64,000 bases of DNA, taken from contig CAZCYZ010000002.1 of assembly GCA_964503465.1 (NCBI GenBank), positions 6,995 to 70,994 on the forward strand, in the 5' to 3' direction. The DNA comes from an uncultured Gammaproteobacteria bacterium (GTDB taxonomy: Bacteria; Patescibacteriota; Microgenomatia; UBA12405). The stretch's first letter is position 1. Each line of letters opens with the position of its first letter. The notes beneath the pieces were generated by a model. The model was not told the DNA's origin. It did not search any database and worked only from the letters and a program-made list of their open reading frames with translations. This document shows positions 460 to 47,294 of the stretch, in pieces. The position numbers and the translations under genes are program-made.

Positions 460-1287
460 TTATGGTTGGCAAATCGAAGAGTCGTTGGAGACAACCATGG
501 CCAGGCGATCGATTCCAAGGCCGCAGCCGGCACAGGGGGGAATGGGTCCCCAGGGGACGGTAATTGATGGCTTAAGGTTTTCGGTGCAACCGTTGGCAAT
601 TTCGACACGGTTGATATAGAGTTCAAAACGTTCGCTTAAGGGGACTCGCAACGATTTTTTTCCGTGCTCACGCGTTGGCGCTTCGCTGACATGATTGCGC
701 GCGGAAAAAAACATTGCTGCGTCCTCTTTGCTCACTTCCGCCAGTGGAGATAAATAGGCCGGATAGCCAACGATAAAAGTGGGGTCGGTGGGAAGTTTTG
801 GTTCGACCTGGTTTAAAAATTGCTGATTAAAGTCGGGCTCGTTGTCGGGATAGGTTTTAAAATATTTTTTAAGCGACAGGTTTTTAAAATTCCTAAAGTT
901 GAAAGTGTGGAGAAGTTGTTGGGTGGTCACCATAATATCGGTGTAGTTTTTGCCGATTTCGTACCATTCGAGCATTAAAAATTCAGGATTATGGTGTGGT
1001 CCTATATTTTCAAGATTTCGAAAGCAGGGACTGATGGCAAAACAATTGCCCAGACCTTGAGAAATCATTTGTTTGAGATAATTTTCGGGGGATGTGGCCA
1101 GAAAATAGTTAACTGGTTTGCCGCGGGATGGTGTCCATTTGGTAGTAAATGGGTAAATATTCGGTTCGATAGGGATGGAGCGATTAAGAATAGGAATAGT
1201 AACTTCGGCAAATTCGCGGTCAAGAAAAAACTGACGGCAGGCAGAAATAATAGATTGTCTTATAGTAAGTTGATTACTGATTGGCAT
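460..1287 (-). CDS. epmA: EF-P lysine aminoacylase EpmA (PoxA/GenX), class II aaRS-like core
   Basis: Class II motif 2 (CFRNLENIGPHHNPEFLMLEWYE) and motif 3 (GCGLGIDRLAM). Aligns by eye to E. coli EpmA apart from a roughly 20-aa insertion corresponding to the repeat at 647-721. Confidence 0.75.
   Translation of the reverse strand: MPISNQLTIRQSIISACRQFFLDREFAEVTIPILNRSIPIEPNIYPFTTKWTPSRGKPVNYFLATSPENYLKQMISQGLGNCFAISPCFRNLENIGPHHNPEFLMLEWYEIGKNYTDIMVTTQQLLHTFNFRNFKNLSLKKYFKTYPDNEPDFNQQFLNQVEPKLPTDPTFIVGYPAYLSPLAEVSKEDAAMFFSARNHVSEAPTREHGKKSLRVPLSERFELYINRVEIANGCTENLKPSITVPWGPIPPCAGCGLGIDRLAMVVSNDSSICQP
647..721. repeat. short palindromic element copy A (arms cgcaacgatttttttccg / cggaaaaaaacattgctgcg), in-frame inside epmA
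   Basis: Shares 12-nt ccgtgctcacgc and 18-nt atgattgcgcgcggaaaa blocks with copy B at 1361-1443; imperfect terminal inverted repeat. Confidence 0.55.
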
Positions 1288-2264
1288 GAGGAGACATTTA
1301 ATTGTTTAATACAACCACAAAGAAAATCGGGTTGGCAACAGCCGTGGCAGGTTCTCTTGTGCTCGCACACAAATTTTGCCGTGCTCACGCCCTCGTACGA
1401 ACACCACTCGGATGATTGCGCGCGGAAAATTTGTGATGCTTCGCCGAACCTGCATTTTTGACAGCTTGATAAACTATTGGTGAAATTTTTAATTATTTTA
1501 TCAACCGGGTCACTGATGGAGGCCAGAGGAACTGATGATTCGCAACAGCCATAAATGTAGCCATCGGATTGGAGGGCCAGTTGGAAGCAACCAAAGTTTT
1601 TTGAAGGGTAAGTGGGGTAGTGGCGAAGAAGATTGAGGGTTTGGTCGGCAGAAAGAGAATTGAGTCTGTCAACTAAATAAGTAATCTTTAGATTAAACAA
1701 ATTAAATTTGTCGATGTGTTGGTAGGAATCTTTGGTGACAAGATAGAAAATTCCCACCGGAAAACCAAGGTCAAGAGCGTGGCGGACAAACTTAACTGAC
1801 TTGTCGAAATTGCCGTTTCCTCGATTGGCATCATGAGTATCTTTGGGCCCGTCAAAAGAAACGATAAGTTGGCAATTGGCGGGATCGGAAATTTCGGAGA
1901 GACGATCGATAGTGCCGTTGGTGATGATGGTAATAAAGATGTGATTGGCCAAAAGTTGGTTGACGAGTTTGGGAAAATCACCAAGGGTAAAGACTTCGCC
2001 GCCACAAAAAAGGATAGATTTAAGGTTTAAACCCCTCCTTAATCCTCCCCTTGAAGAAAGGGAGGACATTTGTTGAAGGTGTTGACGATATTTGGAAACA
2101 AATTTCAGGATTTGGGTGTTGGATAAGACCTGTTTGGTTTTGGTGGTGTAGCAATATTTACAATTTAGATTGCAGGATTCGAGAGGAGAGATGTAAATGT
2201 TCTCAAGCGATCTAGCGATGTGACGAGATGTTAATCTTTGGTGGGTTGAGGGTACCGGGGACAT
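1260..2264 (-). CDS. radical SAM protein with Cys-rich SPASM-like C-terminus
   Basis: CNLNCKYC (CxxxCxxC) near N-terminus; C-terminal cysteine clusters (GCCESS, CQKC, CHGCC, CGC). Confidence 0.7.
   Translation of the reverse strand: MSPVPSTHQRLTSRHIARSLENIYISPLESCNLNCKYCYTTKTKQVLSNTQILKFVSKYRQHLQQMSSLSSRGGLRRGLNLKSILFCGGEVFTLGDFPKLVNQLLANHIFITIITNGTIDRLSEISDPANCQLIVSFDGPKDTHDANRGNGNFDKSVKFVRHALDLGFPVGIFYLVTKDSYQHIDKFNLFNLKITYLVDRLNSLSADQTLNLLRHYPTYPSKNFGCFQLALQSDGYIYGCCESSVPLASISDPVDKIIKNFTNSLSSCQKCRFGEASQIFRAQSSEWCSYEGVSTAKFVCEHKRTCHGCCQPDFLCGCIKQLNVSSCQSVINLL
1361..1443. repeat. short palindromic element copy B, inside 3' end of radical SAM gene
   Basis: Arms cacaaattttgccg / cgcggaaaatttgtg; shared core blocks with copy A. 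Confidence 0.55.
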
Positions 2265-2751: not shown

Positions 2752-3588
2752 TTATAGCAGATGGTGGTCGAAAATGGTTTTGGCAAGAATGTTGCAAAAA
2801 AATTGGACGCCGGCGGCAGAGGGGTGGATATAATCAGAACGGTTAATAAAGTCAGGATTACCGTTTTGATTGACAAGGGAGGGATGATAAGCATCGGCTA
2901 GAGGAAGATTTTTGGATTTGGCAAACTTGATAAAGTTGTCAAAATACAGCTTGATAGTGGAAGTTTTTTCGAGGCGTTCCAGGGCGGAGAGATGAAGATC
3001 TTTGACTCCCTGAGCAAAGTGAACCGAATCAGGAGTAATTGTGGTAGCCAGAATAATGGCAGTATTGGGGAGTTGCTGACGGATGAGAGTGACAATGGAA
3101 TCAAGCTGTTGGCGGTGTTGATCAAAACCTGATTGAGTGTTGCCGTAATTGTTGTAGGCAAAAGATTCAATAACGACGACGTCGGGCTGTTGATTGATGA
3201 TGATGGGGAGGCGGTTTTGGGCGAAGGCTAGAGTGGTGGCGCCACGGCCAAAGTTGAGGATATTAAATTTAATATTGGAATAGTATTTTTGAAGGGCGGT
3301 GGCTAGGGTGGGAATGTTTTGACCCAAAGTTTCGATCATGGAATCACCAATGACGGCAATGGTGACAACCCTGCCATCGCCACCGATAGGTGGTGACTGA
3401 GGGTTGGTGGTGGAAACACCTAGGACTTGAGGGATAGGTGAAGGGGTGGGAGTAGAGAAGTTGGGTGGTGAGTAATAATAATTTGGTTGGTAGGAATAAA
3501 GTAGTTGAAAACTGATTGGAAGTTGAGCTAGAGTGATGGCGGAGGAACGCAGGAAAAGGAAAAATAGGGCGACTAAAAAAACAATCAT
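2752..3588 (-). CDS. SGNH/GDSL-family hydrolase with N-terminal membrane anchor
   Basis: IAVIGDSMIE (GDS block) and DVVVIESFAYNN; start taken at MIVFLVALFF. Confidence 0.6.
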   Translation of the reverse strand: MIVFLVALFFLFLRSSAITLAQLPISFQLLYSYQPNYYYSPPNFSTPTPSPIPQVLGVSTTNPQSPPIGGDGRVVTIAVIGDSMIETLGQNIPTLATALQKYYSNIKFNILNFGRGATTLAFAQNRLPIIINQQPDVVVIESFAYNNYGNTQSGFDQHRQQLDSIVTLIRQQLPNTAIILATTITPDSVHFAQGVKDLHLSALERLEKTSTIKLYFDNFIKFAKSKNLPLADAYHPSLVNQNGNPDFINRSDYIHPSAAGVQFFCNILAKTIFDHHLL

Positions 3589-5901: not shown

Positions 5902-7116
5902 TTGACTATGAAAAAGATACTAATGGAGATAGTCAAGAAATTACCATTAGTGGTTTGGATAGGGATGTTGTCGATTGCCAGCTGGGGTTTTGCGGTCAGA
6001 ATGTCGAGTCGCAACCAGGGAAGTTATGTACGAAGCCGAAGAAGCGAAGTGATGACTAACTGGGGGGCAAACTTGGATCAAAAATCCCCCTACCTTAAGT
6101 CAGAAGTATATTATGAAGGTGGAATAAAAAATGTTGAAGACGATAAGGTGGTGGCCAAGAATGTGAAGGTAGGTAGTAGCTTGGTGAAGGCCAAAATAAA
6201 AATGGACTCGCGGCGAAAAGGTTTGGCATATTTTCCGACTTTTGTGACCGATTTTGAGGGTATTTATAAGGTAAAAAACGAAAGCAGTCGAAACGTAAAA
6301 GCTTATTTGAACTTTCCCTTACCTGGAAGTGGTAATTTGGTGTGGAATGTGGAGGTATTGGCTAATGGTAGTAGTGAGGGAGCAGTAATTAACAGTCGGG
6401 AGTTGGCTTGGAGTGGGTTGATGAAGGCAGGGGAGGAAAAGGAAGTAGTGGTGCGATATGCGGCCAGGGGGATGGAGGAATTTTCCTATTCGTTGGCGGA
6501 AAGTAGCGGATTACAGGATTTTTATTTGCAGGTGGAAGTGGATGGGGCTGATAGGATCGATTTTCCCAGCGGGGCTTTGTCGCCGGTTAAAAGTGTTGAG
6601 GATAGTGAAAACAAAAAATGGAATTTGGAATGGAAGTTTGACAAAGTGTTAACCAGTCCCGAAATTACTGTCAAAACTTTTGCCAAACAAAATATTTCGG
6701 AACAAGTGGCTAAGCTTTTTTGGGTGGCACCGTTGTTGCTGGTGGCTTTCCTGATGGCGATTATTGGACTTGGGTTTTATAGAGGAAAATCAGTAGCGAC
6801 TTTCGACAATATGGTGATGTCGGCATTGTATATGGTCTATTATCCGTTATTGGCTTATGTAGTAAGTGTTTTTGAAAATATTAATATTTACCAGGGACTG
6901 GCAATTTCGGCAGGAGTGATTAGCTTGATATTGGGGTATTATTATCGGTTTTTGTTTGATACCAAATGGGCACTAACAACCGGAGTGATGTTGCAAGTTA
7001 TTTTTATGGCATTCTTCCCAGTGGCGATGCTGATTCCGCAGTTGACCGGATTTTTAGTGGTTTGCGGAGTGATTGCAATATTGGGGGTAGTGGTGAAATT
7101 AAGAGTGGAAAGATAA
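5902..7116 (+). CDS. CreD-like inner-membrane protein (N-terminal anchor, large extracytoplasmic domain, C-terminal multi-TM block)
   Basis: Architecture and local similarity to E. coli CreD (FPSGALSPVKSVEDSENKKWNLEW vs FLGDFLPAKREISESGFQAHWQ) judged by eye. Confidence 0.45.
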   Translation: MTMKKILMEIVKKLPLVVWIGMLSIASWGFAVRMSSRNQGSYVRSRRSEVMTNWGANLDQKSPYLKSEVYYEGGIKNVEDDKVVAKNVKVGSSLVKAKIKMDSRRKGLAYFPTFVTDFEGIYKVKNESSRNVKAYLNFPLPGSGNLVWNVEVLANGSSEGAVINSRELAWSGLMKAGEEKEVVVRYAARGMEEFSYSLAESSGLQDFYLQVEVDGADRIDFPSGALSPVKSVEDSENKKWNLEWKFDKVLTSPEITVKTFAKQNISEQVAKLFWVAPLLLVAFLMAIIGLGFYRGKSVATFDNMVMSALYMVYYPLLAYVVSVFENINIYQGLAISAGVISLILGYYYRFLFDTKWALTTGVMLQVIFMAFFPVAMLIPQLTGFLVVCGVIAILGVVVKLRVER

Positions 7117-7860: not shown

Positions 7861-9018
7861 ATGAAAAAAAGAAAAGTATATTTGGATTATGCGGCGACTA
7901 CGCCGGTGGATCCACGGGTGGTGAGGGCGATGTTGCCGTATTTTTATGATAGTTTTGGCAATACCATGTCGTTGCATCAATATGGTCGGGTCGAGGCGGA
8001 GGTGGTGGAAAAAATACGGGAGAAAGTAGCCAGGTTGGTTGGGGCTAAGACAGATGAAATAATTTTTACCGGGAGTGCAACTGAAAGTAATAATTTGGCT
8101 TTAAAGGGGTTGGCAGAAGCTAACCCAACAAAAAAGCAAATCATTATTTCGGCAATTGAACATGACTGTGTGCTAAAAAGCGCTGAATGGTTGGAGGGTA
8201 AGGGTTACAAAGTTGATAGGGTGGGAGTGGATCAATATGGACGGGTGAAGCTTGACGAATTGAAAAGATTATTGGGTGGGGAAACTTTGGTGGTGTCAAT
8301 AATTTTGGCCAACAATGAGGTGGGGACAGTTCAGGATGTTGAGGCGATTGGAAAACTTTGTCGAGACAAGGGGGTATACTTTCACACTGATGCTTCCCAG
8401 GCCTTGGGAAAAGTAAAAATTGAAGTAAATGAACAACAAATTGATTTGTTGACGGCTTCGAGTCATAAAATTTATGGCCCCAAAGGAGTGGCGGTGTTGT
8501 ACGTTCGGGAAGGAACAAAATTGACGCCAATACTCCATGGCGGTGGACATGAGGGAGGATTACGGTCGTCAACGGTCAACGTGCCGGCAATTGTGGGTCT
8601 TGGAAAAGCAATTGATTTGGATCAAAAACTAAATATTAAAAATCAAAAATTAAGTGAATTGAGGGACAGATTGGTGGAAGGAGTGTTAAAAAATATCCCT
8701 GGAACGAAGTTAAACGGAGATTCAGATCATCGACTGCCTAATATTGCCAATATTTCCTTTGACTATATTGAAGGGGAAGGAGTGGTGTTGGAGCTGGATA
8801 GAATGGGGGTGATGGTGTCGACTGGATCGGCTTGTTCCTCGACCAGTTTGGAGCCAAGTCATGTGTTGTTGGCGATGGGGTTGACACATCAACAAGCTCA
8901 TGGGTCATTGCGGTTTAGTGTTGGCAGGTGGACAACTAAAAGTGAGATTGATTATGTGTTGACGGTGTTGCCAAAAATTGTGGCCAAATTTAGAAAAATT
9001 TCACCTTATAAGTTATGA
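7861..9018 (+). CDS. iscS: cysteine desulfurase IscS/NifS
   Basis: YLDYAATTPVDPRV..., SSHKIYGPKG PLP-lysine region, GGGHEGGLRSSTVNVP. Confidence 0.9.
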   Translation: MKKRKVYLDYAATTPVDPRVVRAMLPYFYDSFGNTMSLHQYGRVEAEVVEKIREKVARLVGAKTDEIIFTGSATESNNLALKGLAEANPTKKQIIISAIEHDCVLKSAEWLEGKGYKVDRVGVDQYGRVKLDELKRLLGGETLVVSIILANNEVGTVQDVEAIGKLCRDKGVYFHTDASQALGKVKIEVNEQQIDLLTASSHKIYGPKGVAVLYVREGTKLTPILHGGGHEGGLRSSTVNVPAIVGLGKAIDLDQKLNIKNQKLSELRDRLVEGVLKNIPGTKLNGDSDHRLPNIANISFDYIEGEGVVLELDRMGVMVSTGSACSSTSLEPSHVLLAMGLTHQQAHGSLRFSVGRWTTKSEIDYVLTVLPKIVAKFRKISPYKL

Positions 9019-9029
9019 AAATTCCTAGC

Positions 9030-9120
9030 TTGCAACAAATTTTTTGCAGTACTCGCTACCTTCGGGCTCCGATCCTGCGGTTCTCGCGTTCGCTGCGTGC
9101 TGAAAAAATTGTTGCGGCGC
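9030..9120. repeat. palindromic element copy C between iscS and iscU (arms gcaacaaattttttgcag / ctgaaaaaattgttgcgg)
   Basis: About 18-nt imperfect inverted repeat flanking a GC-rich core related to copies A and B. Confidence 0.5.
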
Positions 9121-9136
9121 TGTCATTTTCACTTAA

Positions 9137-9601
9137 TTGATGATTATGATTCAAAATATAAATTACTCAAAAAAGGTTTTAAAACATTTTAGGAATCCCC
9201 ATAACCTGGGAAAGATTGCCAATGCCAGTGGAACAGGGGAGGTGGGGAACATGGCTTGTGGCGATGTGATGAAGTTGTATATTAAGGTGAAGGATGGGGT
9301 AATTACTGGGGTGAAATTTGAAACTTATGGTTGTGCGGCGGCGATTGCCACTAGTAGCGTGATTACTGATATGGTCAAAGGGAAAACGATTGAAGAGGCA
9401 TTGGAGTTGACCAACCAAGATGTGATTGAATCACTTGAAGGTTTGCCGCCGGTAAAGATCCATTGTTCACTACTGTCGGTGGATGCTTTGTCGGAGGCGA
9501 TTTATGATTATTTGCGAGAAAACAAATTGGAGATACCAAAAGACTTGGAGTTGAGACACAAAAGAATTGTGACTTTGGCAAAAGAAGACCATCATCATTA
9601 G
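9137..9601 (+). CDS. iscU: Fe-S cluster scaffold IscU/NifU
   Basis: GTGEVGNMACGDVMKL, TYGCAAAIATSS, LPPVKIHCSLL motifs. Confidence 0.9.
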   Translation: MMIMIQNINYSKKVLKHFRNPHNLGKIANASGTGEVGNMACGDVMKLYIKVKDGVITGVKFETYGCAAAIATSSVITDMVKGKTIEEALELTNQDVIESLEGLPPVKIHCSLLSVDALSEAIYDYLRENKLEIPKDLELRHKRIVTLAKEDHHH

Positions 9602-13563: not shown

Positions 13564-13668
13564 TTTGAAAGGGATGGCACATTGGTTCGTAACAATTTTT
13601 TCGCTCCTGTCAAATACGTGACCGTGTTGAACGGATCGAAAAAATATTACTTCACCTGTGCCTCGTTT

Positions 13669-14526
13669 TTAGGTCAAGTTGTTTTTGATTTGATCCCAAA
13701 GGATTGGAGTTTTGCCTTCGAGCTGAACGGTAAGAGGGTTGATGGCGATGATTTTGAGACGTCGGTGGTTGGGGGTGGTGGTCCAAACTCCGGGCCAGGG
13801 GTGAAGAGCACGATAGAGAGTGTTGAGCTGGGGAGCAAAGTGTGGGTCAAGGAAATTGGCCCAAGTGACAAAACCGTCGTCACGGGTTAATTGGCGAGCA
13901 TAGGTTGGATCGTTGACTGTTGGTCGTCGAGTTTGAGGGATGGGGGTGATTTGGTTAATTTTAGGAAGAGTGTCGATAATTAAATCGGCACTAAGGCGGT
14001 AGAGTTTGTCATAAAGAGTTTGGCGAGTATCAGTGGGGGTAATGGGAATGGTGGATTGGGTCAGGATATCCCCCTGATCGAATTTGGCCGACATTTTGAT
14101 AAGAGTGACTCCAGTCTTGGATTCGCCTTTTAAAATGGCCCATTCAGCCGGGAAACGGCCGGCATAATCGGGAAGAAGTGATTGATGAGCATTAAGAGAG
14201 GTGTTGAGGGGAAACTCAAGCCATGTTTTTGGGATTAACCGGCCAAAACCTGCAACGATAATAAAATCAGGTCGGTCTAGTTTCGGGGGGATAGTGTCAA
14301 GGTTTTCCAGGGGGAACACTGGTAATTGATGGTCAAGACAATATTGGTGAACAGCGGTGGGGGTGATAATCCCACGGTCGCCGGGACGGGGAGGGGTAGT
14401 CACCACGGCGATAATTTTAATGTTGGGGGAATGGTGAAGAGCCTCAAGAGTAAGAACCGAGTAGTGCTGGAAGGAGCCAAAAAATATGATATGGCTAATT
14501 GACATTGGTATTTGGTTTTGTTTCAA
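13669..14526 (-). CDS. fmt: methionyl-tRNA formyltransferase
   Basis: HQSLLPDYAGRFPAEWAILKGESKTGVTLIKMSAKFDQGDIL formyl-transferase core. Confidence 0.8.
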   Translation of the reverse strand: MKQNQIPMSISHIIFFGSFQHYSVLTLEALHHSPNIKIIAVVTTPPRPGDRGIITPTAVHQYCLDHQLPVFPLENLDTIPPKLDRPDFIIVAGFGRLIPKTWLEFPLNTSLNAHQSLLPDYAGRFPAEWAILKGESKTGVTLIKMSAKFDQGDILTQSTIPITPTDTRQTLYDKLYRLSADLIIDTLPKINQITPIPQTRRPTVNDPTYARQLTRDDGFVTWANFLDPHFAPQLNTLYRALHPWPGVWTTTPNHRRLKIIAINPLTVQLEGKTPILWDQIKNNLT

Positions 14527-42362: not shown

Positions 42363-45300
42363 TTGAAAACAGGTAAACTTTTTTCAGACTATATTAAGGT
42401 TAAAAATAACAAAATGAATAAAATCTTTCGAAGGATAGGTAGTAATAGTGGTTTGGCTCAAATTCCCTTGGTAATTGGTTTGTTGATAATGGCGGTGGCA
42501 ATACCAGTAGCTACCAAATTAAGTCAGACGGAACAGGATACAAGAGATAAGGCGGCTGCTAAGGTATGTACTGTGGGAAATTTGGGAACTCGTTGTACTA
42601 ATAGTAGTGGTCAGTCTTGTCAGGAATATAGATTAGCGAATTGCGATATTTTATGTAATCAAAATTGTACTGGTGGGGGTGGAGGAAGTACTCCAAAGTT
42701 GCCAAAACCGACTAGTGGTGGCGGTGGAGGATCGACTTGTGAAGCTGGTCGTGAGAACGTTGGTTGCGGGAAAACCGGGCGAGTGAGTGGTGATTGTCGA
42801 CAAGCGGTGACATTTAACTGCTCAAGTAATCAGATGGGAGTTTTGGAAATTAGCAGGGATTGTACTTGTCGGGCGACTTGTGTTAATTCGTCTTCTTGTG
42901 CTGAACCAACCTCTCCACCCCGGGCAACTAATACACCAGAACCGTCATGTCAGGCGGGTCGTCAGGAGTTTTTGGGTGAATGTGGCAAGAAAGGTCGGGT
43001 GTCTACTATAAGGTTTGGATCGAGGTCGTATGAATGCGCCCAGCCGGTGGATTTTAATTGTCAGAGTGGACAAATTGGAGTTATTGAAATGGCTGGACCA
43101 AATTGTGTTTGTAGTGCCAGGTGTTTGAACGAATCTACTTGTGCCGCGGCCACGCCGACTACTAGACCAACTTCTCGACCAACTTCGACTTCGACTCCTC
43201 GGCCGACCACAGCTTGTGTTCGAAATGGATTAACGACAGGCTCAACGTCGAATTGTTGTAGTAAAAGTAGTGTTACTTATGCTGGTACTGGTGGGAGTCT
43301 TGTCACCTGTTGTGCTGCTAATGGAACAGTGGCGGAAAATAAGGCTGAATGTTGTAGTGGTAATGGGACAGTGATCACAGGTGGGCGGGACCAAGGTGCT
43401 TATACTTGTGGTGCTGCGCCAACCTCTACTCCTAGACCGACAGCTACTCCGACAGCGTCAAATTTGGGGAGTTGTGCCGCCACTTCAAGCCATCCAGTAA
43501 TGGCTAATGGTGAGACCTACTGTCAGAGTCCGTATCTTCTTGGTTCTCGAGCTTGGGCTTGTAACAATGGTACGGCAACAGTGAGAACAAACTATTTGAA
43601 TACCCGAAATTGTGACGGTAATGTCCCAACCGGGTTGCCAGTGGGTAACTGTGCTGCCACTGGTAATCATCCAGAGATGACTAATGGTGGATCCTATTGT
43701 CAGACCCCTTATTTGGCTGGTTCCAGAAGGTGGACTTGTAACAATGGGGATGCAACCATATCGCGTAATTTCTTGGCTACTAGAAATTGTGAAGAGACTG
43801 TTCCGACTGGAGCAGGAGGGAGTTGTACAGCAACTACCAATACTCCAGCTCTAGCTAATGGTGAGTCTTATTGTCAGAGTCCTTATTTGGCTGGTTCCAG
43901 AAGGTGGACTTGTAACAATGGAGTAGTATCGGTATCTCATGACTTTTTATTGACTAGAAATTGTAGTGGAACAGTGCCGACTGGATTACCGGCGGGTAAC
44001 TGTGCTGCGTCGCCAAATCATCCGGCCATGACTAACGGTCAGTCTTATTGTCAAAGTCCGTATCTTTTGGGATCAAGAGTTTGGACTTGTAGTAATGGAG
44101 ATGCAGTAATAACTAATAATTACGAGGCGACTCGAAATTGTAATGGAACTATTCCAACAGGATTACCGGCAGGTAACTGTCCGGCCACTTCAAGCCATCC
44201 AGTAATGGCTAATGGTGAGACCTACTGTCAGAGTCCGTATCTTCTTGGTTCTCGAGCTTGGGCTTGTAACAATGGTACGGCAACAGTGAGAACAAACTAT
44301 TTGAATACCCGAAATTGTGACGGTAATGTCCCAACCGGGTTGCCAGTGGGTAACTGTGCTGCCACTGGTAATCATCCAGAGATGACTAATGGTGGATCCT
44401 ATTGTCAGACCCCTTATTTGGCTGGTTCCAGAAGGTGGACTTGTAACAATGGGGATGCAACCATATCGCGTAATTTCTTGGCTACTAGAAATTGTGAAGA
44501 GACTGTTCCGACTGGAGCAGGAGGGAGTTGTACAGCAACTACCAATACTCCAGCTCTAGCTAATGGTGAGTCTTATTGTCAGAGTCCTTACAGATTAGGA
44601 TCAAGAAGATGGCATTGCGACAATGGGGTGGTATCGGTGGAGTCTATATATCTTCTTACTAGAGATTGTCGGGGAACCGTGCCAACTGGAACGACTCCGG
44701 GAAATTGTGCCGCGACTGACGAGACTCCGGTTTTGACTAACGGTCAGTCTTATTGTCAAAGTCCGTATAGGTTGGGGTCAAGAAGATGGGTTTGTAACAA
44801 TGGGGTGGTATCGGTAACAAATAATTATTTGACTACAGCCAATTGTGCCAGTTCATCACTGACTCCAATTCCTGGTTGTGTGATAGTCAATCCTTTAGGA
44901 GGGTGTCTATTAACACAAACAGCGATTGACAATCTAAACGAGTGTAGTGCGATAAGCTCTTTGCCTATTAGTAGCAGTTTGAGGGCGAGTGTATGTAGTG
45001 CTGTTGGTTTGAGGGCAGTGTTACCACTTCATTGTCAATGGTCAAATGGAAGTTGTGTACCTCGTTACAATGTCAATCCTTTTACTTGTAAAGTTGGAGG
45101 AGTGGCTGGTGTCTGTACTACTCGAAGTAACTGTAGTGGAACCTTTGACCAAACACAGGTTGTTGACTGTGGCGGTGCTCTAGGGCCTTTGTATACTGTT
45201 CTGGGTGTTGGCTGTTGTGTGACTGGAGGCACTGGAGGAATAGTAACTCCAATTCCGGGTTGTATTGTTGCTAATCCGGCTGGTGGTTGTTGGTTGACCC

Positions 45301-47294
45301 AGGCTGATTTGAATAATCTTAATGAGTGTAGTGCGATAAATTCTATTCCCTACATAGGGGCGAGTTTAAAGTCAAGTATCTGTAGTGCAGTGGGACTTAG
45401 GCCGGTGTTACCACTTCATTGTCAATGGTCAAATGGAAGTTGTGTACCTCGTTACAATGTCAATCCTTTTACTTGTAAAGTTGGAGGAGTGGCTGGTGTC
45501 TGTACTACTCGAAGTAACTGTAGTGGAACCTTTGACCAAACACAGGTTGTTGACTGTGGCGGTGCTCTAGGGCCTTTGTATACTGTTCTGGGTGTTGGCT
45601 GTTGTGTGACTGGAGGAGCTAGTCCTACCCCAACTGCTACCCCAACTGTTACGGTGACAGGGATTTGTGGTAGTGTTTGTGGAAGAGTCCCCTTACTAGT
45701 GAGGTCAGCTTGTGTTGCTGCGTGTACTAATATTGTTAATAATGGTTGTGCAGCGGGAAGAAATACCTTTATTGATGGGTGTATGACTACTTGTAATAGG
45801 TCGTCGGTGTTGAGGTTGGCGGGTGTTTGTTCGAATATATGTCGTCTGGCCGCCGATGAGATTTGTACTGATATACCAGGTACGGATTGTCCTAATCCGG
45901 GAACTACTACTTGTGAAGATGGTAGGGTACGGGCCTGTAAAGGCGATGGTGCTTGGGGCGAATGGATTACCTGTTTGTCGGGTCAGTGTAACACCGATGG
46001 AACAGAGTGTAAGTTCCCCCCAATATCGCCGTTGCCAACTAAGGGTGTTCGAGGAACACCGACAGGAACCAGGTGTCAAGATGGGGTAAGGGAGTTAAGA
46101 TGTGGAATTCAGGGTCGAGTAACTGGAACTGAATTTGGCTGTGAGCGTCCAGTAGATTTTAACTGTGCCGCAAATCAAATGGGTACGATTCGGGTTAGTC
46201 CTGATTGTCGATGTCAGCCGGTGTGTATGAATTCTTCGGCTTGTAGTTTAATTCCAACTGGTCAGCCGACAGGAACCAGGTGTCAAGATGGGGTAAGGGA
46301 GTTAAGATGTGGAATTCAGGGTCGAGTAACTGGAACTGAATTTGGCTGTGAGCGTCCAGTAGATTTTAACTGTGCCGCAAATCAAATGGGTACGATTCGG
46401 GTTAGTCCTGATTGTCGATGTCAGCCGGTGTGTATGAATTCTTCGGCTTGTAGTTTGGAGCCGACTCCGACTACTGGAAGGGGAATAACACCGGTAGTAA
46501 CAAGAGAGCCGACAACTCCTCCAGGACCAGGTTCATGTGACCAGAAATGTCCGACGAGTGACGGTAAAATCTTGAAAAACTGTACTCCGCCAGATAGTGA
46601 TGGCTCTAGTCAGGATAGCAATTGTGACCGTAGGGGTAGAGTTGAGCCCTGTGGTGGTAGCCAGTACTGCTGTGATGGAAGTAAGTGGAGTACTGACATG
46701 GCAGCTTGCGGAAATGTACCTACCACCCCTCCCGGTTGTGACCAAAAGTGCCCAACAAGTGATGGAAAAATCTTGAAAAACTGCACTCCACCAGACAGTG
46801 ATGGTACCAGTCAGGATAGCAATTGTGACCGTAGGGGTAGAGTAGAATCTTGTGGTGGTAGCCAGTACTGCTGTGATGGAAGTAAGTGGAGTACTGACAT
46901 GGCAGCTTGTGGGTCGGGTAAGTGTAAACGGTGCCCAGCAGACTTTAAGTGTTACACCGATGGGAGTGAGTATCGGTGGTTTGTGACAGGATATGCAATG
47001 GAGGGATTTGAGCTGGTGGCTTCACCGGATACCACTAGTTGTGGTGGTGTGACTCAACCGAGTTATATGGGCAAACAGAAGGGTGATGCCAATTGTGATG
47101 GCTTTGTCGATGGTTATGACTATTCGATTTGGAGAACGGAGTATGTGGATGTTAGCGGCGGTGAGCCATTAGTTCGAGATAATTGGGAGGCTGACTTCAC
47201 TGGTAACGACGGTCTGTGTGATGGAGTGGTGGATGGATACGATTACTCCTTGTGGAGAAATCAATATAAAGATTTAAATGGAGGAGGAAACTAA
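42363..47294 (+). CDS. giant Cys-rich repetitive surface protein (1643 aa) with N-terminal anchor and C-terminal dockerin-like repeat pair
   Basis: About ten 55-aa modules (GNCAAT..HP.M.NG.SYCQ.PYL.GSR.W.CNNG...TRNC); duplicated 70-80-aa modules; C-terminal DANCDGFVDGYDYSIW and DGLCDGVVDGYDYSLW. Confidence 0.7.
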   Translation: MKTGKLFSDYIKVKNNKMNKIFRRIGSNSGLAQIPLVIGLLIMAVAIPVATKLSQTEQDTRDKAAAKVCTVGNLGTRCTNSSGQSCQEYRLANCDILCNQNCTGGGGGSTPKLPKPTSGGGGGSTCEAGRENVGCGKTGRVSGDCRQAVTFNCSSNQMGVLEISRDCTCRATCVNSSSCAEPTSPPRATNTPEPSCQAGRQEFLGECGKKGRVSTIRFGSRSYECAQPVDFNCQSGQIGVIEMAGPNCVCSARCLNESTCAAATPTTRPTSRPTSTSTPRPTTACVRNGLTTGSTSNCCSKSSVTYAGTGGSLVTCCAANGTVAENKAECCSGNGTVITGGRDQGAYTCGAAPTSTPRPTATPTASNLGSCAATSSHPVMANGETYCQSPYLLGSRAWACNNGTATVRTNYLNTRNCDGNVPTGLPVGNCAATGNHPEMTNGGSYCQTPYLAGSRRWTCNNGDATISRNFLATRNCEETVPTGAGGSCTATTNTPALANGESYCQSPYLAGSRRWTCNNGVVSVSHDFLLTRNCSGTVPTGLPAGNCAASPNHPAMTNGQSYCQSPYLLGSRVWTCSNGDAVITNNYEATRNCNGTIPTGLPAGNCPATSSHPVMANGETYCQSPYLLGSRAWACNNGTATVRTNYLNTRNCDGNVPTGLPVGNCAATGNHPEMTNGGSYCQTPYLAGSRRWTCNNGDATISRNFLATRNCEETVPTGAGGSCTATTNTPALANGESYCQSPYRLGSRRWHCDNGVVSVESIYLLTRDCRGTVPTGTTPGNCAATDETPVLTNGQSYCQSPYRLGSRRWVCNNGVVSVTNNYLTTANCASSSLTPIPGCVIVNPLGGCLLTQTAIDNLNECSAISSLPISSSLRASVCSAVGLRAVLPLHCQWSNGSCVPRYNVNPFTCKVGGVAGVCTTRSNCSGTFDQTQVVDCGGALGPLYTVLGVGCCVTGGTGGIVTPIPGCIVANPAGGCWLTQADLNNLNECSAINSIPYIGASLKSSICSAVGLRPVLPLHCQWSNGSCVPRYNVNPFTCKVGGVAGVCTTRSNCSGTFDQTQVVDCGGALGPLYTVLGVGCCVTGGASPTPTATPTVTVTGICGSVCGRVPLLVRSACVAACTNIVNNGCAAGRNTFIDGCMTTCNRSSVLRLAGVCSNICRLAADEICTDIPGTDCPNPGTTTCEDGRVRACKGDGAWGEWITCLSGQCNTDGTECKFPPISPLPTKGVRGTPTGTRCQDGVRELRCGIQGRVTGTEFGCERPVDFNCAANQMGTIRVSPDCRCQPVCMNSSACSLIPTGQPTGTRCQDGVRELRCGIQGRVTGTEFGCERPVDFNCAANQMGTIRVSPDCRCQPVCMNSSACSLEPTPTTGRGITPVVTREPTTPPGPGSCDQKCPTSDGKILKNCTPPDSDGSSQDSNCDRRGRVEPCGGSQYCCDGSKWSTDMAACGNVPTTPPGCDQKCPTSDGKILKNCTPPDSDGTSQDSNCDRRGRVESCGGSQYCCDGSKWSTDMAACGSGKCKRCPADFKCYTDGSEYRWFVTGYAMEGFELVASPDTTSCGGVTQPSYMGKQKGDANCDGFVDGYDYSIWRTEYVDVSGGEPLVRDNWEADFTGNDGLCDGVVDGYDYSLWRNQYKDLNGGGN
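43470..44590. repeat. near-identical tandem direct repeat (~0.4 kb identical core within a 705-bp period) inside the giant gene
   Basis: Identical antisense ORFs reported at 43485..43670 and 44190..44375; DNA identical by eye from ~43470-43885 and 44175-44590. Confidence 0.7.

Follow-up and report, generated by a model that had tools for sequence, protein, structure and literature searches.

Results

The window and its copies of the element

The stretch of DNA analysed here (the window) comprises 64,000 nucleotides, positions 6,995 to 70,994 of contig CAZCYZ010000002.1 (assembly GCA_964503465.1), which is deposited as an uncultured Gammaproteobacteria bacterium and placed by GTDB in the Patescibacteriota (Microgenomatia; UBA12405). 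Near its left end lie two overlapping genes on the minus strand, each of which carries, in frame, one copy of an imperfect palindromic element that recurs elsewhere in the window and in related genomes of the Candidate Phyla Radiation (CPR). The features concerned are as follows.

460–1287, minus strand: host gene 1, an EpmA/GenX-like class-II aminoacyl-tRNA-synthetase core paralogue of 275 amino acids (aa) (Pfam PF00152, 4.6e-35)
1260–2264, minus strand: host gene 2, a radical-SAM (rSAM) enzyme of 334 aa (Pfam PF04055, 2.2e-15)
641–724, minus strand: copy A of the palindromic element, in frame in the EpmA-like gene (covariance model R1, 69.9 bits, E = 8e-13)
1358–1446, minus strand: copy B, in frame in the radical-SAM gene (R1, 66 bits, E = 6e-12)
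9026–9121, minus strand: copy C, intergenic (R1, 40.2 bits, E = 2.8e-6)
13581–13658, minus strand: a doubtful, degenerate fourth copy with an unaligned core (R1, 20 bits, E = 0.078)

Both minus-strand open reading frames (ORFs) run uninterrupted across copies A and B. Two blocks are shared exactly by these copies on the plus strand, CCGTGCTCACGC at 662–673 and 1379–1390 and ATGATTGCGCGCGGAAAA at 691–708 and 1412–1429. Two matches to the 18-mer, with up to three mismatches allowed, were obtained in 0 of 100 dinucleotide-preserving shuffles. Both copies fold into long hairpins, with z scores against shuffles of −4.0 (A) and −4.3 (B) on the plus strand and −2.8 and −1.9, respectively, on the minus strand. 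Model R1 was built on copies from other genomes and was used to scan the whole 64-kb window with filters off; it recovered both copies at E values of about 1e-12. The exact blocks, the shuffle control and the R1 matches bear out the claim of an earlier, sequence-only reading of this DNA that two copies of one element lie here. The location given in that reading was also correct, but its size of about 75–85 nt fell short of the 85–90 nt observed, as the variable outer stem runs past the T and A runs. Of the terminal inverted repeats (TIRs) that it described, the T and A runs do pair; the conserved part is the core and not the termini, and the element is not a classical TIR-bearing MITE (miniature inverted-repeat transposable element).

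Copy C fills the 118-bp spacer of a nifS-nifU pair, between a cysteine desulfurase gene (7861–9018, plus strand; Pfam Aminotran_5) and a NifU/IscU-like gene (9137–9601, plus strand; Pfam NifU_N). It begins 8 nt past the stop codon of the cysteine desulfurase gene, is antisense to both flanking genes and shares its absolute strand with copies A and B. The sequence at 13581–13658 has the outer stem and the T and A runs only, and is located directly downstream of a formyltransferase-like ORF (13669–14526, minus strand). With three to four copies in 64 kb, the density of the element in the window is about one per 15–20 kb.

Structure and covariation

The element is a single imperfect hairpin of ~85–95 nt (~88 nt). 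In an alignment of 70 copies it consists, from the outside in, of a copy-variable but self-complementary outer stem broken by a small GAA/GA internal loop; a T run paired with an A run, followed by a CNG/CNG stem; an invariant asymmetric loop with one base (N) opposite GAGCA; two GC pairs, a GA bulge, a GC/GY stem and an AAUCAU-type bulged segment; and, at the centre, CC..GG or GU..AC pairing followed by a variable terminal hairpin. The outer 12–16 nt of each arm vary among copies with complementarity kept, and the hairpins are stable at about −30 kcal/mol. A reading of the GAA/GA internal loop as a K-turn was dropped on inspection by eye, as a Watson-Crick register of the outer stem fits better.

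The hairpin is maintained by compensatory changes. When the 70 copies were scored against a hand-written structure, 79.6% of cells were paired, compared with 65% in shuffles and 37–49% when the partners were slid, and the covariation score of 0.366 (versus 0.139) was reached by 0 of 500 shuffles. In the R1-based alignment of 112 copies, which is biased towards the model to which it was fitted, 88.5% of cells were paired and 24 of 29 pairs had changed on both sides, in agreement with the MAFFT-based count. One pair in these 112 copies is AU in 50, CG in 39 and GC in 19, and is broken in none.

Composite or nested copies were observed in genomes CAZKMY01 and CAZKZW01 (loci L062 1051–1200 and 4563–4700, L091 922–1023 and L108 5566–5667). 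They show either a left arm, unrelated AT-rich DNA and a second element in succession, or a core that contains an extra hairpin (CACCTGCCTCGCCGGCAAGGCGGGTCTGAG), which suggests insertion of one element into another or recombination.

Inserts in the EpmA-like and radical-SAM proteins

Homologues of the EpmA-like protein carry the JGI name “elongation factor P--(R)-beta-lysine ligase”. Copy A encodes approximately residues 188–216 of this protein (..DAAMFFSARNHVSEAPTREHGKKSLRVPL..), and copy B encodes ..ASQIFRAQSSEWCSYEGVSTAKFVCEH.. in the rSAM enzyme. Copy B is read through, as had been noted before, but it does not occupy a dispensable 3′ tail, since it splits a conserved Cys motif (C-x2-C | C-x-G-C-C) 32 codons before the stop. 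In the two genes these blocks fall into different reading frames, with TTT TCC GCG CGC AAT CAT translated as FSARNH in the EpmA-like gene and ATT TTC CGC GCG CAA TCA as IFRAQS in the rSAM gene; the repeat is therefore a nucleotide-level and not a peptide-level one. A conserved protein domain as the source of the shared blocks, a possibility that the sequence-only reading had raised against itself, was ruled out by the finding that, across hosts, one nucleotide string is translated in each of the three frames (FSARNH..REHGKK, FFRAQ..GVSTAK and FQRAIIR..).

The 120 best EpmA-like homologues fall into two length groups, ~250 versus ~280–290 aa, and an alignment of 33 of these proteins places the length difference at a single position flanked by the conserved YPAFLSPLA and RFELYINGIEIANG blocks. 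Many EpmA-like proteins that are 45–53% identical to that of the window have no insert (“SPLAKA-SERFELY”), and others have ~25–35 extra residues. In the DNA of seven loci the insert peptides are variants of FSARNH..REHGKK, FFRAQ..GVSTAK and FSERSE..EGSEHRK, the three frames of one DNA sequence. The extra length of ~31 aa matches a full element of 87–95 nt. Many insert-free homologues of both proteins are 45–65% identical to those of the window (33 EpmA-like and 32 rSAM proteins aligned); the alignment of orthologues that the earlier reading had proposed separates many without the extra residues from others with an insert at the same point. Insert-free rSAM homologues have the motif C-x2-C-x2-C-x-G-C-C (e.g. 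“CQKCQQ-CLGCC”); the window's enzyme and many others have ~35–45 residues between the second and third Cys, encoded in all three frames and with a presence that is mosaic across lineages. The rSAM site is also filled in related loci L003, L006/L007, L013, L030, L067, L075 and L098, and the Cys motifs are conserved on both sides of the insert.

AlphaFold2, run on the EpmA alignment, gave a mean pLDDT (predicted local distance difference test) of 84 and a pTM (predicted template modelling score) of 0.82. The pLDDT falls to 45–50 only over residues ~191–210 and exceeds 90 on either side, and the EpmA insert is therefore predicted to form a disordered surface loop.

Among 5.8 billion proteins, the closest EpmA-like relative is 76% identical to the window's. 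The EpmA-like gene starts 28 nt before the rSAM gene ends (overlap 1260–1287), and the gene pair is syntenic in relatives L002–L007. In several relatives it is preceded by genes for L33, a GDSL lipase-like protein and a ribosome-hibernation (S30AE) protein, a conserved translation-related neighbourhood. By Pfam, the rSAM enzyme beside the EpmA-like gene does not belong to the KamA/EpmB type.

A second variable in-frame insert region was noted in the rSAM family just before LKSILFCGGEVF (window ~2030–2075, codons ~65–80; alignment columns 68–110). Several homologues have RDFFSTLSLATDSPEKK..-type segments there, with Phe codons first and Lys codons last, as a T run and an A run would give. The window itself has a short inverted repeat at ~2030–2075 (tcctcccc..ggggagga), and R1 gives no match to it; the region may hold another, or a degenerate, palindromic element. 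Stand-alone GIY-YIG genes (85–86 aa) were found a few kb from the rSAM-EpmA locus on unrelated contigs (L002 11301–11558 and L006 7042–7302), and their small products are speculative candidates for a nuclease partner.

Distribution and genomic context of the family

More copies, for which the sequence-only reading had suggested a search, were found in addition to copy C. A degenerate pattern in gene-sense orientation, TTTTN{4,5}GCGCARN{15,45}GYGAGCACNGNAAAA, was drawn from the first copies and matched 101 stretches exactly in a collection of one genome per species. About 85% of the matches belong to Shapirobacteria, Woesebacteria, Roizmanbacteria, “Parcubacteria”, Patescibacteria metagenome-assembled genomes (MAGs), or third-party-annotation (TPA) MAGs titled Gammaproteobacteria/Pseudomonadales. 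Several genomes were matched on multiple contigs (at least 9 in CAZKMY01, 6 in DBRI01 and 4 in DAONDY01). R1 found 114 copies in 708 kb of Microgenomates/Patescibacteria-related loci.

Many of the element-bearing TPA “binchicken”/SRP co-assembly MAGs (L009, L011, L020, L025, L029, L031 and others) are titled “uncultured Gammaproteobacteria/Pseudomonadales bacterium”. At least one MAG so titled, CAYUZS01 (GCA_964448705.1), holds a CPR-type rSAM-EpmA locus, and the record taxonomy of these MAGs appears to be wrong or unreliable.

Pattern matches in a Planctomycetota CarB gene and in Methylophilus, Pseudoalteromonas, Acidobacteriaceae and Gemmatimonadota were rejected as chance occurrences in genuine coding sequence. 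Five Nitrospirales genomes (L014, L015, L023, L077 and L080) have one 45-nt pattern match each (TTTTTTGCGCGCAGAGCGTACTTCCAGTACGTGAGCACGGAAAAA) with similar flanks; these were rejected as family members, having no R1 match and looking like a single conserved orthologous hairpin. The deltaproteobacterial MAG CAIWCD01 gave four weak R1 matches (E = 2e-4 to 5e-3; L036 7110–7203 and 7775–7867, L099 768–860, L100 6998–7092), which have a TTTT..GCGCGCAG..GCGAGCACGGAAAAA core with CGAG..CC ends in a GC-rich form. They may represent a distant relative outside the CPR or binning contamination.

By crude ORF-based calls, about three quarters of the copies are intergenic, in spacers of ~130–150 nt, and typically start no more than a few tens of bases past the upstream stop codon. 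The other quarter or so are in long ORFs (identified by Pfam), in any of the three frames, and the same sites recur in several species. The in-gene hosts are listed below.

MurB: same site in three genomes
GT1/GT4 glycosyltransferase: same site in three genomes
Cytidylyltransferase (NadD-like)
TrwB/HerA-like ATPase
EpmA-like protein and rSAM enzyme: many genomes
MnmA: one genome, opposite orientation

Conserved domains lie on both sides of the insert in the EpmA-like, rSAM, MurB, GT1/GT4, cytidylyltransferase and TrwB/HerA-like ATPase hosts. One copy (L049 3358–3442, minus strand) lies 20 nt past a 5S rRNA gene (3222–3338, plus strand) at the end of an rRNA operon, and the family is therefore not confined to protein-gene contexts.

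Rfam gave no relevant match for the window copies (E ≤ 10) or for seven loci that hold canonical copies (E ≤ 1). A scan of a viral collection with the family pattern returned 0 matches and thus no sign of a phage vector. No such elements in CPR were found in the searchable literature, which appears to contain no description of the palindromic family, of the range of its hosts or of its replication polarity. In-frame palindromic repeats are already known as a phenomenon, and the CPR family is a new instance of it.

Orientation relative to chromosome polarity

Of 111 copies, 109 have the element sense strand on the C-rich strand, a bias seen in all context classes (binomial p = 5e-30; the copies are partly non-independent, some being at orthologous sites). 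Local skew measured along the element sense strand has a mean of about −0.3, and is below −0.1 in 106 of the 111 copies and above +0.1 in none. At multi-copy loci all copies are co-oriented on one absolute strand, and the three copies of the window are all on the minus strand although their host and flanking genes differ in direction. Copies between convergent (9) and divergent (4) genes have the same strand polarity. Gene direction was rejected as the determinant of orientation once it was compared with GC skew; the orientation of the element follows the compositional polarity of the chromosome and not transcription.

Across the whole 64 kb, GC skew, (G−C)/(G+C), is extreme and uniform, at +0.17 to +0.51 on the plus strand, whatever the local gene direction. 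Related loci have absolute skews of ~0.15–0.45. Such a skew is far stronger than in most bacteria. The G-rich strand carries 72% of coding bases in the window and 61–72% overall. From this gene-strand bias and the usual skew rule, the skew polarity is taken to reflect replication, with the C-rich strand as the lagging strand.

Copies inside genes are sense in 21–27 cases and antisense in 3, and intergenic copies between co-directional genes are antisense in 34–40 cases and sense in 7–14. Since orientation tracks skew, the sense in-gene copies are those in genes of the C-rich (lagging) strand, and hosts include more of these genes than expected (p = 0.006, from only ~13 independent sites). Stop codons were rejected as the cause of the in-gene bias, as neutral copies have 0.81 open frames in sense and 1.03 in antisense orientation. 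Peptides from sense open frames have a Kyte–Doolittle hydropathy (KD) of −0.70 with 28% charged residues, 24.5% hydrophobic residues and 2.5% Cys, compared with a KD of +0.09, 36.3% hydrophobic residues and 5.6% Cys for antisense open frames (hydropathy difference p = 8e-20). The enrichment of hosts among C-rich-strand genes, and with it the in-gene orientation bias, would be explained by a protein-level filter, the sense frames being hydrophilic.

Turnover of copies

Amplification of the element within genomes was observed, as was its decay. For 31 of 81 copies, against an expected 3.3, the nearest neighbour was another copy of the same genome, and copies at different loci are up to 97.6% identical, outer stem included. 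At the EpmA site, the window's clade provides a decay series: the element is complete in both the window and L002, though its inner subtype differs between them; in L003 the core is degraded; in L110 internal sequence has been deleted and the outer stem is left; and in L109 the outermost remnants alone persist. In the closest relative, L002, the EpmA-site element is of a different subtype and is 61% identical to copy A, versus 73–84% in the flanks. Copy A is nearer to the copy in an EpmA-like protein of 52% identity (L001) than to that in the 76%-identical relative (L002), which argues for turnover or conversion at an occupied site.

No target-site duplication (TSD) was detected: no direct repeat abuts the element in 96 of 112 copies, and those of the remainder, at 2–3 nt, are what AT-rich flanks would be expected to give. 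Orphan half-sites bracketing a longer autonomous element were sought in ~770 kb of fragments; only diverged or nested copies were found.

Other features of the window and related loci

The window contains large direct or tandem repeats at 43473–46912 (300-nt units spaced by 177/351 nt, and pairs of 254, 191 and 176 nt, at 90–100% identity), which probably encode a repeat-domain, possibly surface, protein. In a Shapirobacteria MAG (L012 3201–6910), a 23S rRNA match extends over 3710 nt versus a model of 2925 positions, corresponding to ~0.8 kb of insertion(s). Insertions in 23S rRNA are a known CPR trait.

Discussion

A probable mobile hairpin in genes and spacers

Copies A and B probably represent a selfish, non-autonomous, hairpin-defined DNA element of Microgenomates-type CPR/Patescibacteria whose spread is coupled to replication. 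A structure-specific enzyme would act on the element as single-stranded DNA (ssDNA) at the replication fork, in a REP/RAYT-like (repetitive extragenic palindrome; REP-associated tyrosine transposase) or an IS200/IS605-like “peel and paste” manner, and would thereby copy or move it. Coupling to the fork would fix the polarity of the element and leave no target duplication. Insertions into genes would survive if their length keeps the frame, if the site encodes a surface loop and if the gene is on the C-rich strand, on which all open frames of the element would give hydrophilic, Lys/Arg/Glu/Ser-rich peptides. A surviving in-gene element would become a disordered loop of ~30 residues, as may have happened in the EpmA-like and rSAM proteins, and old copies would decay, be partly deleted or be refreshed by conversion from other copies. 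Mobilisation of the ssDNA type is favoured here because a structure-defined core, the absence of a TSD and a near-absolute polarity match elements that are processed as ssDNA. The “peel and paste” ssDNA transposition of IS200/IS605 elements ties orientation to replication and leaves no TSD (PMC5027513), and REPs and bacterial interspersed mosaic elements (BIMEs) with RAYT transposases are thought to be processed as folded single strands, also with no TSD (PMC3333891).

Comparison with known repeat families

The sequence-only reading had likened the copies to Rickettsia palindromic elements (RPEs), which are dispersed palindromes in frame in Rickettsia genes (PMC10969869). The CPR elements resemble RPEs in being short dispersed palindromes of a small reduced genome that lie in frame in unrelated housekeeping genes, are compatible with the protein fold and are common to orthologous sites (PMC10969869). 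The comparison holds in essence, and in-frame insertion is a true parallel, but the likeness is incomplete: the peptide is not conserved in one frame, most copies are intergenic and orientation is fixed to the replication strand. RPEs are ~100–150 bp long with one conserved peptide frame per family, whereas the CPR element is ~88 nt long, is read in three frames and occurs in another phylum, across several candidate phyla; by description it is set apart from RPEs. To our knowledge, strict replication-strand polarity is not a described property of RPEs.

With REPs and BIMEs the family shares dispersed imperfect palindromes, compensatory stems, conserved mismatches or bulges, a mostly extragenic position downstream of genes and the lack of a TSD (PMC3333891). 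REPs are, however, ~20–40 nt long with a 5′ GTAG and form inverted pairs, whereas the CPR element is a single ~88-nt hairpin without GTAG, is co-oriented, has no inverted doublets and includes in-gene copies; no RAYT was found in a search of fragments with an approximate query. Replication-linked orientation, the lack of a TSD and the recognition of irregular DNA hairpins are also features of IS200/IS605 elements and palindrome-associated transposable elements (PATEs) (PMC5027513). In IS200/IS605 the active strand is the lagging-strand template, whereas the better-pairing strand of the CPR element is the leading-strand template, and no TnpA was found in the fragments searched.

The MITE families ERIC, Correia/CREE, RUP, Nezha and Chunjie are similar in size class, hairpin transcripts, intergenic preference and occasional in-frame copies (PMC10969869). 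They differ in having conserved TIRs, a variable interior and a TSD, whereas the CPR element has a conserved core, a variable outer stem and no TSD. MITE families are usually limited to a genus or family, but the CPR family spans several candidate phyla of the Microgenomates group. Integron attC sites (PMC5371416) are likewise single imperfect hairpins (57–141 nt) with conserved extrahelical or unpaired features and a variable tip that are strand-specific, post-stop and co-oriented. The CPR element is without the R″/R′ boxes (RYYYAAC/GTTRRRY), cassette arrays and integrase context of attC sites, and has housekeeping neighbours and in-gene copies. As a single hairpin with no fixed target and with its better-pairing strand on the leading-strand template, the family does not fit IS608-like elements, and it was filed under no known family.

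Mobility weighed against a host function

Several results weigh against a mobile element. The majority of distant comparisons show higher conservation in the element than in the surrounding coding DNA (79 versus 50–56%, 80 versus 49% and 97 versus 77%), and its core is near-identical across lineages whose proteins are only 45–55% identical; selection at the level of the host would account for this conservation as well as turnover does. IS200/IS605 elements have two distinct subterminal hairpins and lie 3′ of a fixed 4–5-nt target, whereas the CPR element is one continuous hairpin with no conserved flank motif, its flanks showing A-richness only, with no position above ~59%. Neither phmmer nor motif searches, a weak test with an approximate query, detected a Y1/HUH-like ORF among 3060 ORFs in ~770 kb of fragmentary DNA, and no trans-acting enzyme was identified in this set. 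The loci also included no clean, recent pair of empty and filled sites that would define the ends of the element. Finally, in intergenic copies antisense to their genes, G·U pairs number 53 versus 13 for A·C, and the invariant pair takes the form G·U in 74 copies and G-C in 34. The wobble-tolerating, better-pairing strand thus lies on the C-rich strand, that is, on the leading-strand template and not on the lagging-strand template used by IS608. This bias would be opposite to mutational skew, which should create G·T on the other strand.

These observations can be read instead as a host-functional polar DNA signal, such as a site of single-strand initiation or priming, a binding site for a fork or segregation protein, or an architecture-imparting sequence, selected at about one per 15–20 kb even over coding sequence. 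The strand polarity of 98% equals or exceeds that of classical polar motifs, the asymmetric core is invariant across class- or phylum-level divergence and, at orthologous sites, more conserved than the coding flanks, and the same sites are filled in many species. The failure to find a transposase, TSD or target motif, and the tolerance of wobble on one strand contrary to the expectation from mutational skew, also fit such a signal. Against it, the decay and deletion series at the EpmA site and the mosaic absence of inserts indicate that single copies are dispensable, and the near-identical subfamilies that individual genomes hold at unrelated loci resemble bursts of amplification. Spacing is irregular, with, for example, three copies within 4 kb in L043, and the clustering of copies after stop codons and in loop-coding sites is what purifying selection on random insertions would leave. 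A polar host signal is for these reasons considered unlikely, although it deserves serious attention. Slightly less probable still is its broadest form, a clade-wide, strand-specific chromosomal signal in which a structured ssDNA motif would be read by the replication, repair or segregation machinery of these minimal genomes and kept, by compensatory changes, through coding sequence in any of the three frames, the loops in essential enzymes being by-products of a DNA-level code.

Action at the level of RNA was also considered, in which the hairpin, within the mRNA, would terminate or attenuate transcription, mark a site of processing or stabilise the 3′ end; such roles have been shown for some REP, ERIC and Correia repeats, and in-gene copies would be incidental or regulatory. 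The start of intergenic copies within tens of bases of the upstream stop codon, the stable (~−30 kcal/mol) and strongly covarying hairpins and the T-rich flanks of the hairpin on the G-rich strand are in keeping with this role. It is nonetheless improbable, because orientation tracks the replication strand, with sense, antisense, convergent and divergent copies all of one polarity, because the G·U-keeping strand is not the mRNA strand in most intergenic copies, and because no Rfam family was matched. An intrinsic terminator in particular was rejected: a T run 5′ and an A run 3′ of the stem, found in both orientations, are the reverse of such a terminator, and orientation is not linked to genes. 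The T content after the minimum-free-energy hairpin was discarded as a measure of termination, as AT-rich flanks stretched the predicted stem to ~115 nt and made it uninformative; fixed-offset profiles showed A-rich flanks on both sides of the element sense strand.

Removal of the insert before the protein is made, by an intron-like RNA, an intein-like segment or translational bypass, is very improbable. A stable hairpin within coding sequence would suit it, and bypassed palindromic inserts have precedents in the mitochondrial “byp” elements. Every in-gene copy examined is, however, in frame and stop-free, although neutral copies have only about one third of their frames open; such a pattern would be expected only of a translated insert. 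Retention is selective for the orientation that gives a hydrophilic peptide, and no ribozyme or intron family was matched. Chance similarity, or a conserved coding module common to both genes, is ruled out for practical purposes by the shuffles, the E values of 1e-12, the differing frames and the more than 100 mostly non-coding copies.

Implications

Colonisation of essential genes by in-frame palindromes has so far been viewed chiefly as a Rickettsia curiosity, and the same behaviour occurs in free-standing CPR lineages with a different element. This suggests a general route by which very small genomes gain surface loops, as in EpmA, radical-SAM enzymes, MurB and glycosyltransferases. The element explains part of the bimodal lengths of CPR orthologues (~250 versus 280 aa for EpmA and ~285 versus 330 aa for rSAM), and gene callers and alignments can be misled by it. 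As a near-perfect (98%) strand marker, it also allows replichores to be oriented in fragmented CPR assemblies. A conserved core with a fixed replication polarity across lineages of ~50% identity implies a structure-specific protein partner, which would be either a new type of enzyme that mobilises hairpins or a replication factor of the host; in these organisms DNA transactions have hardly been studied.

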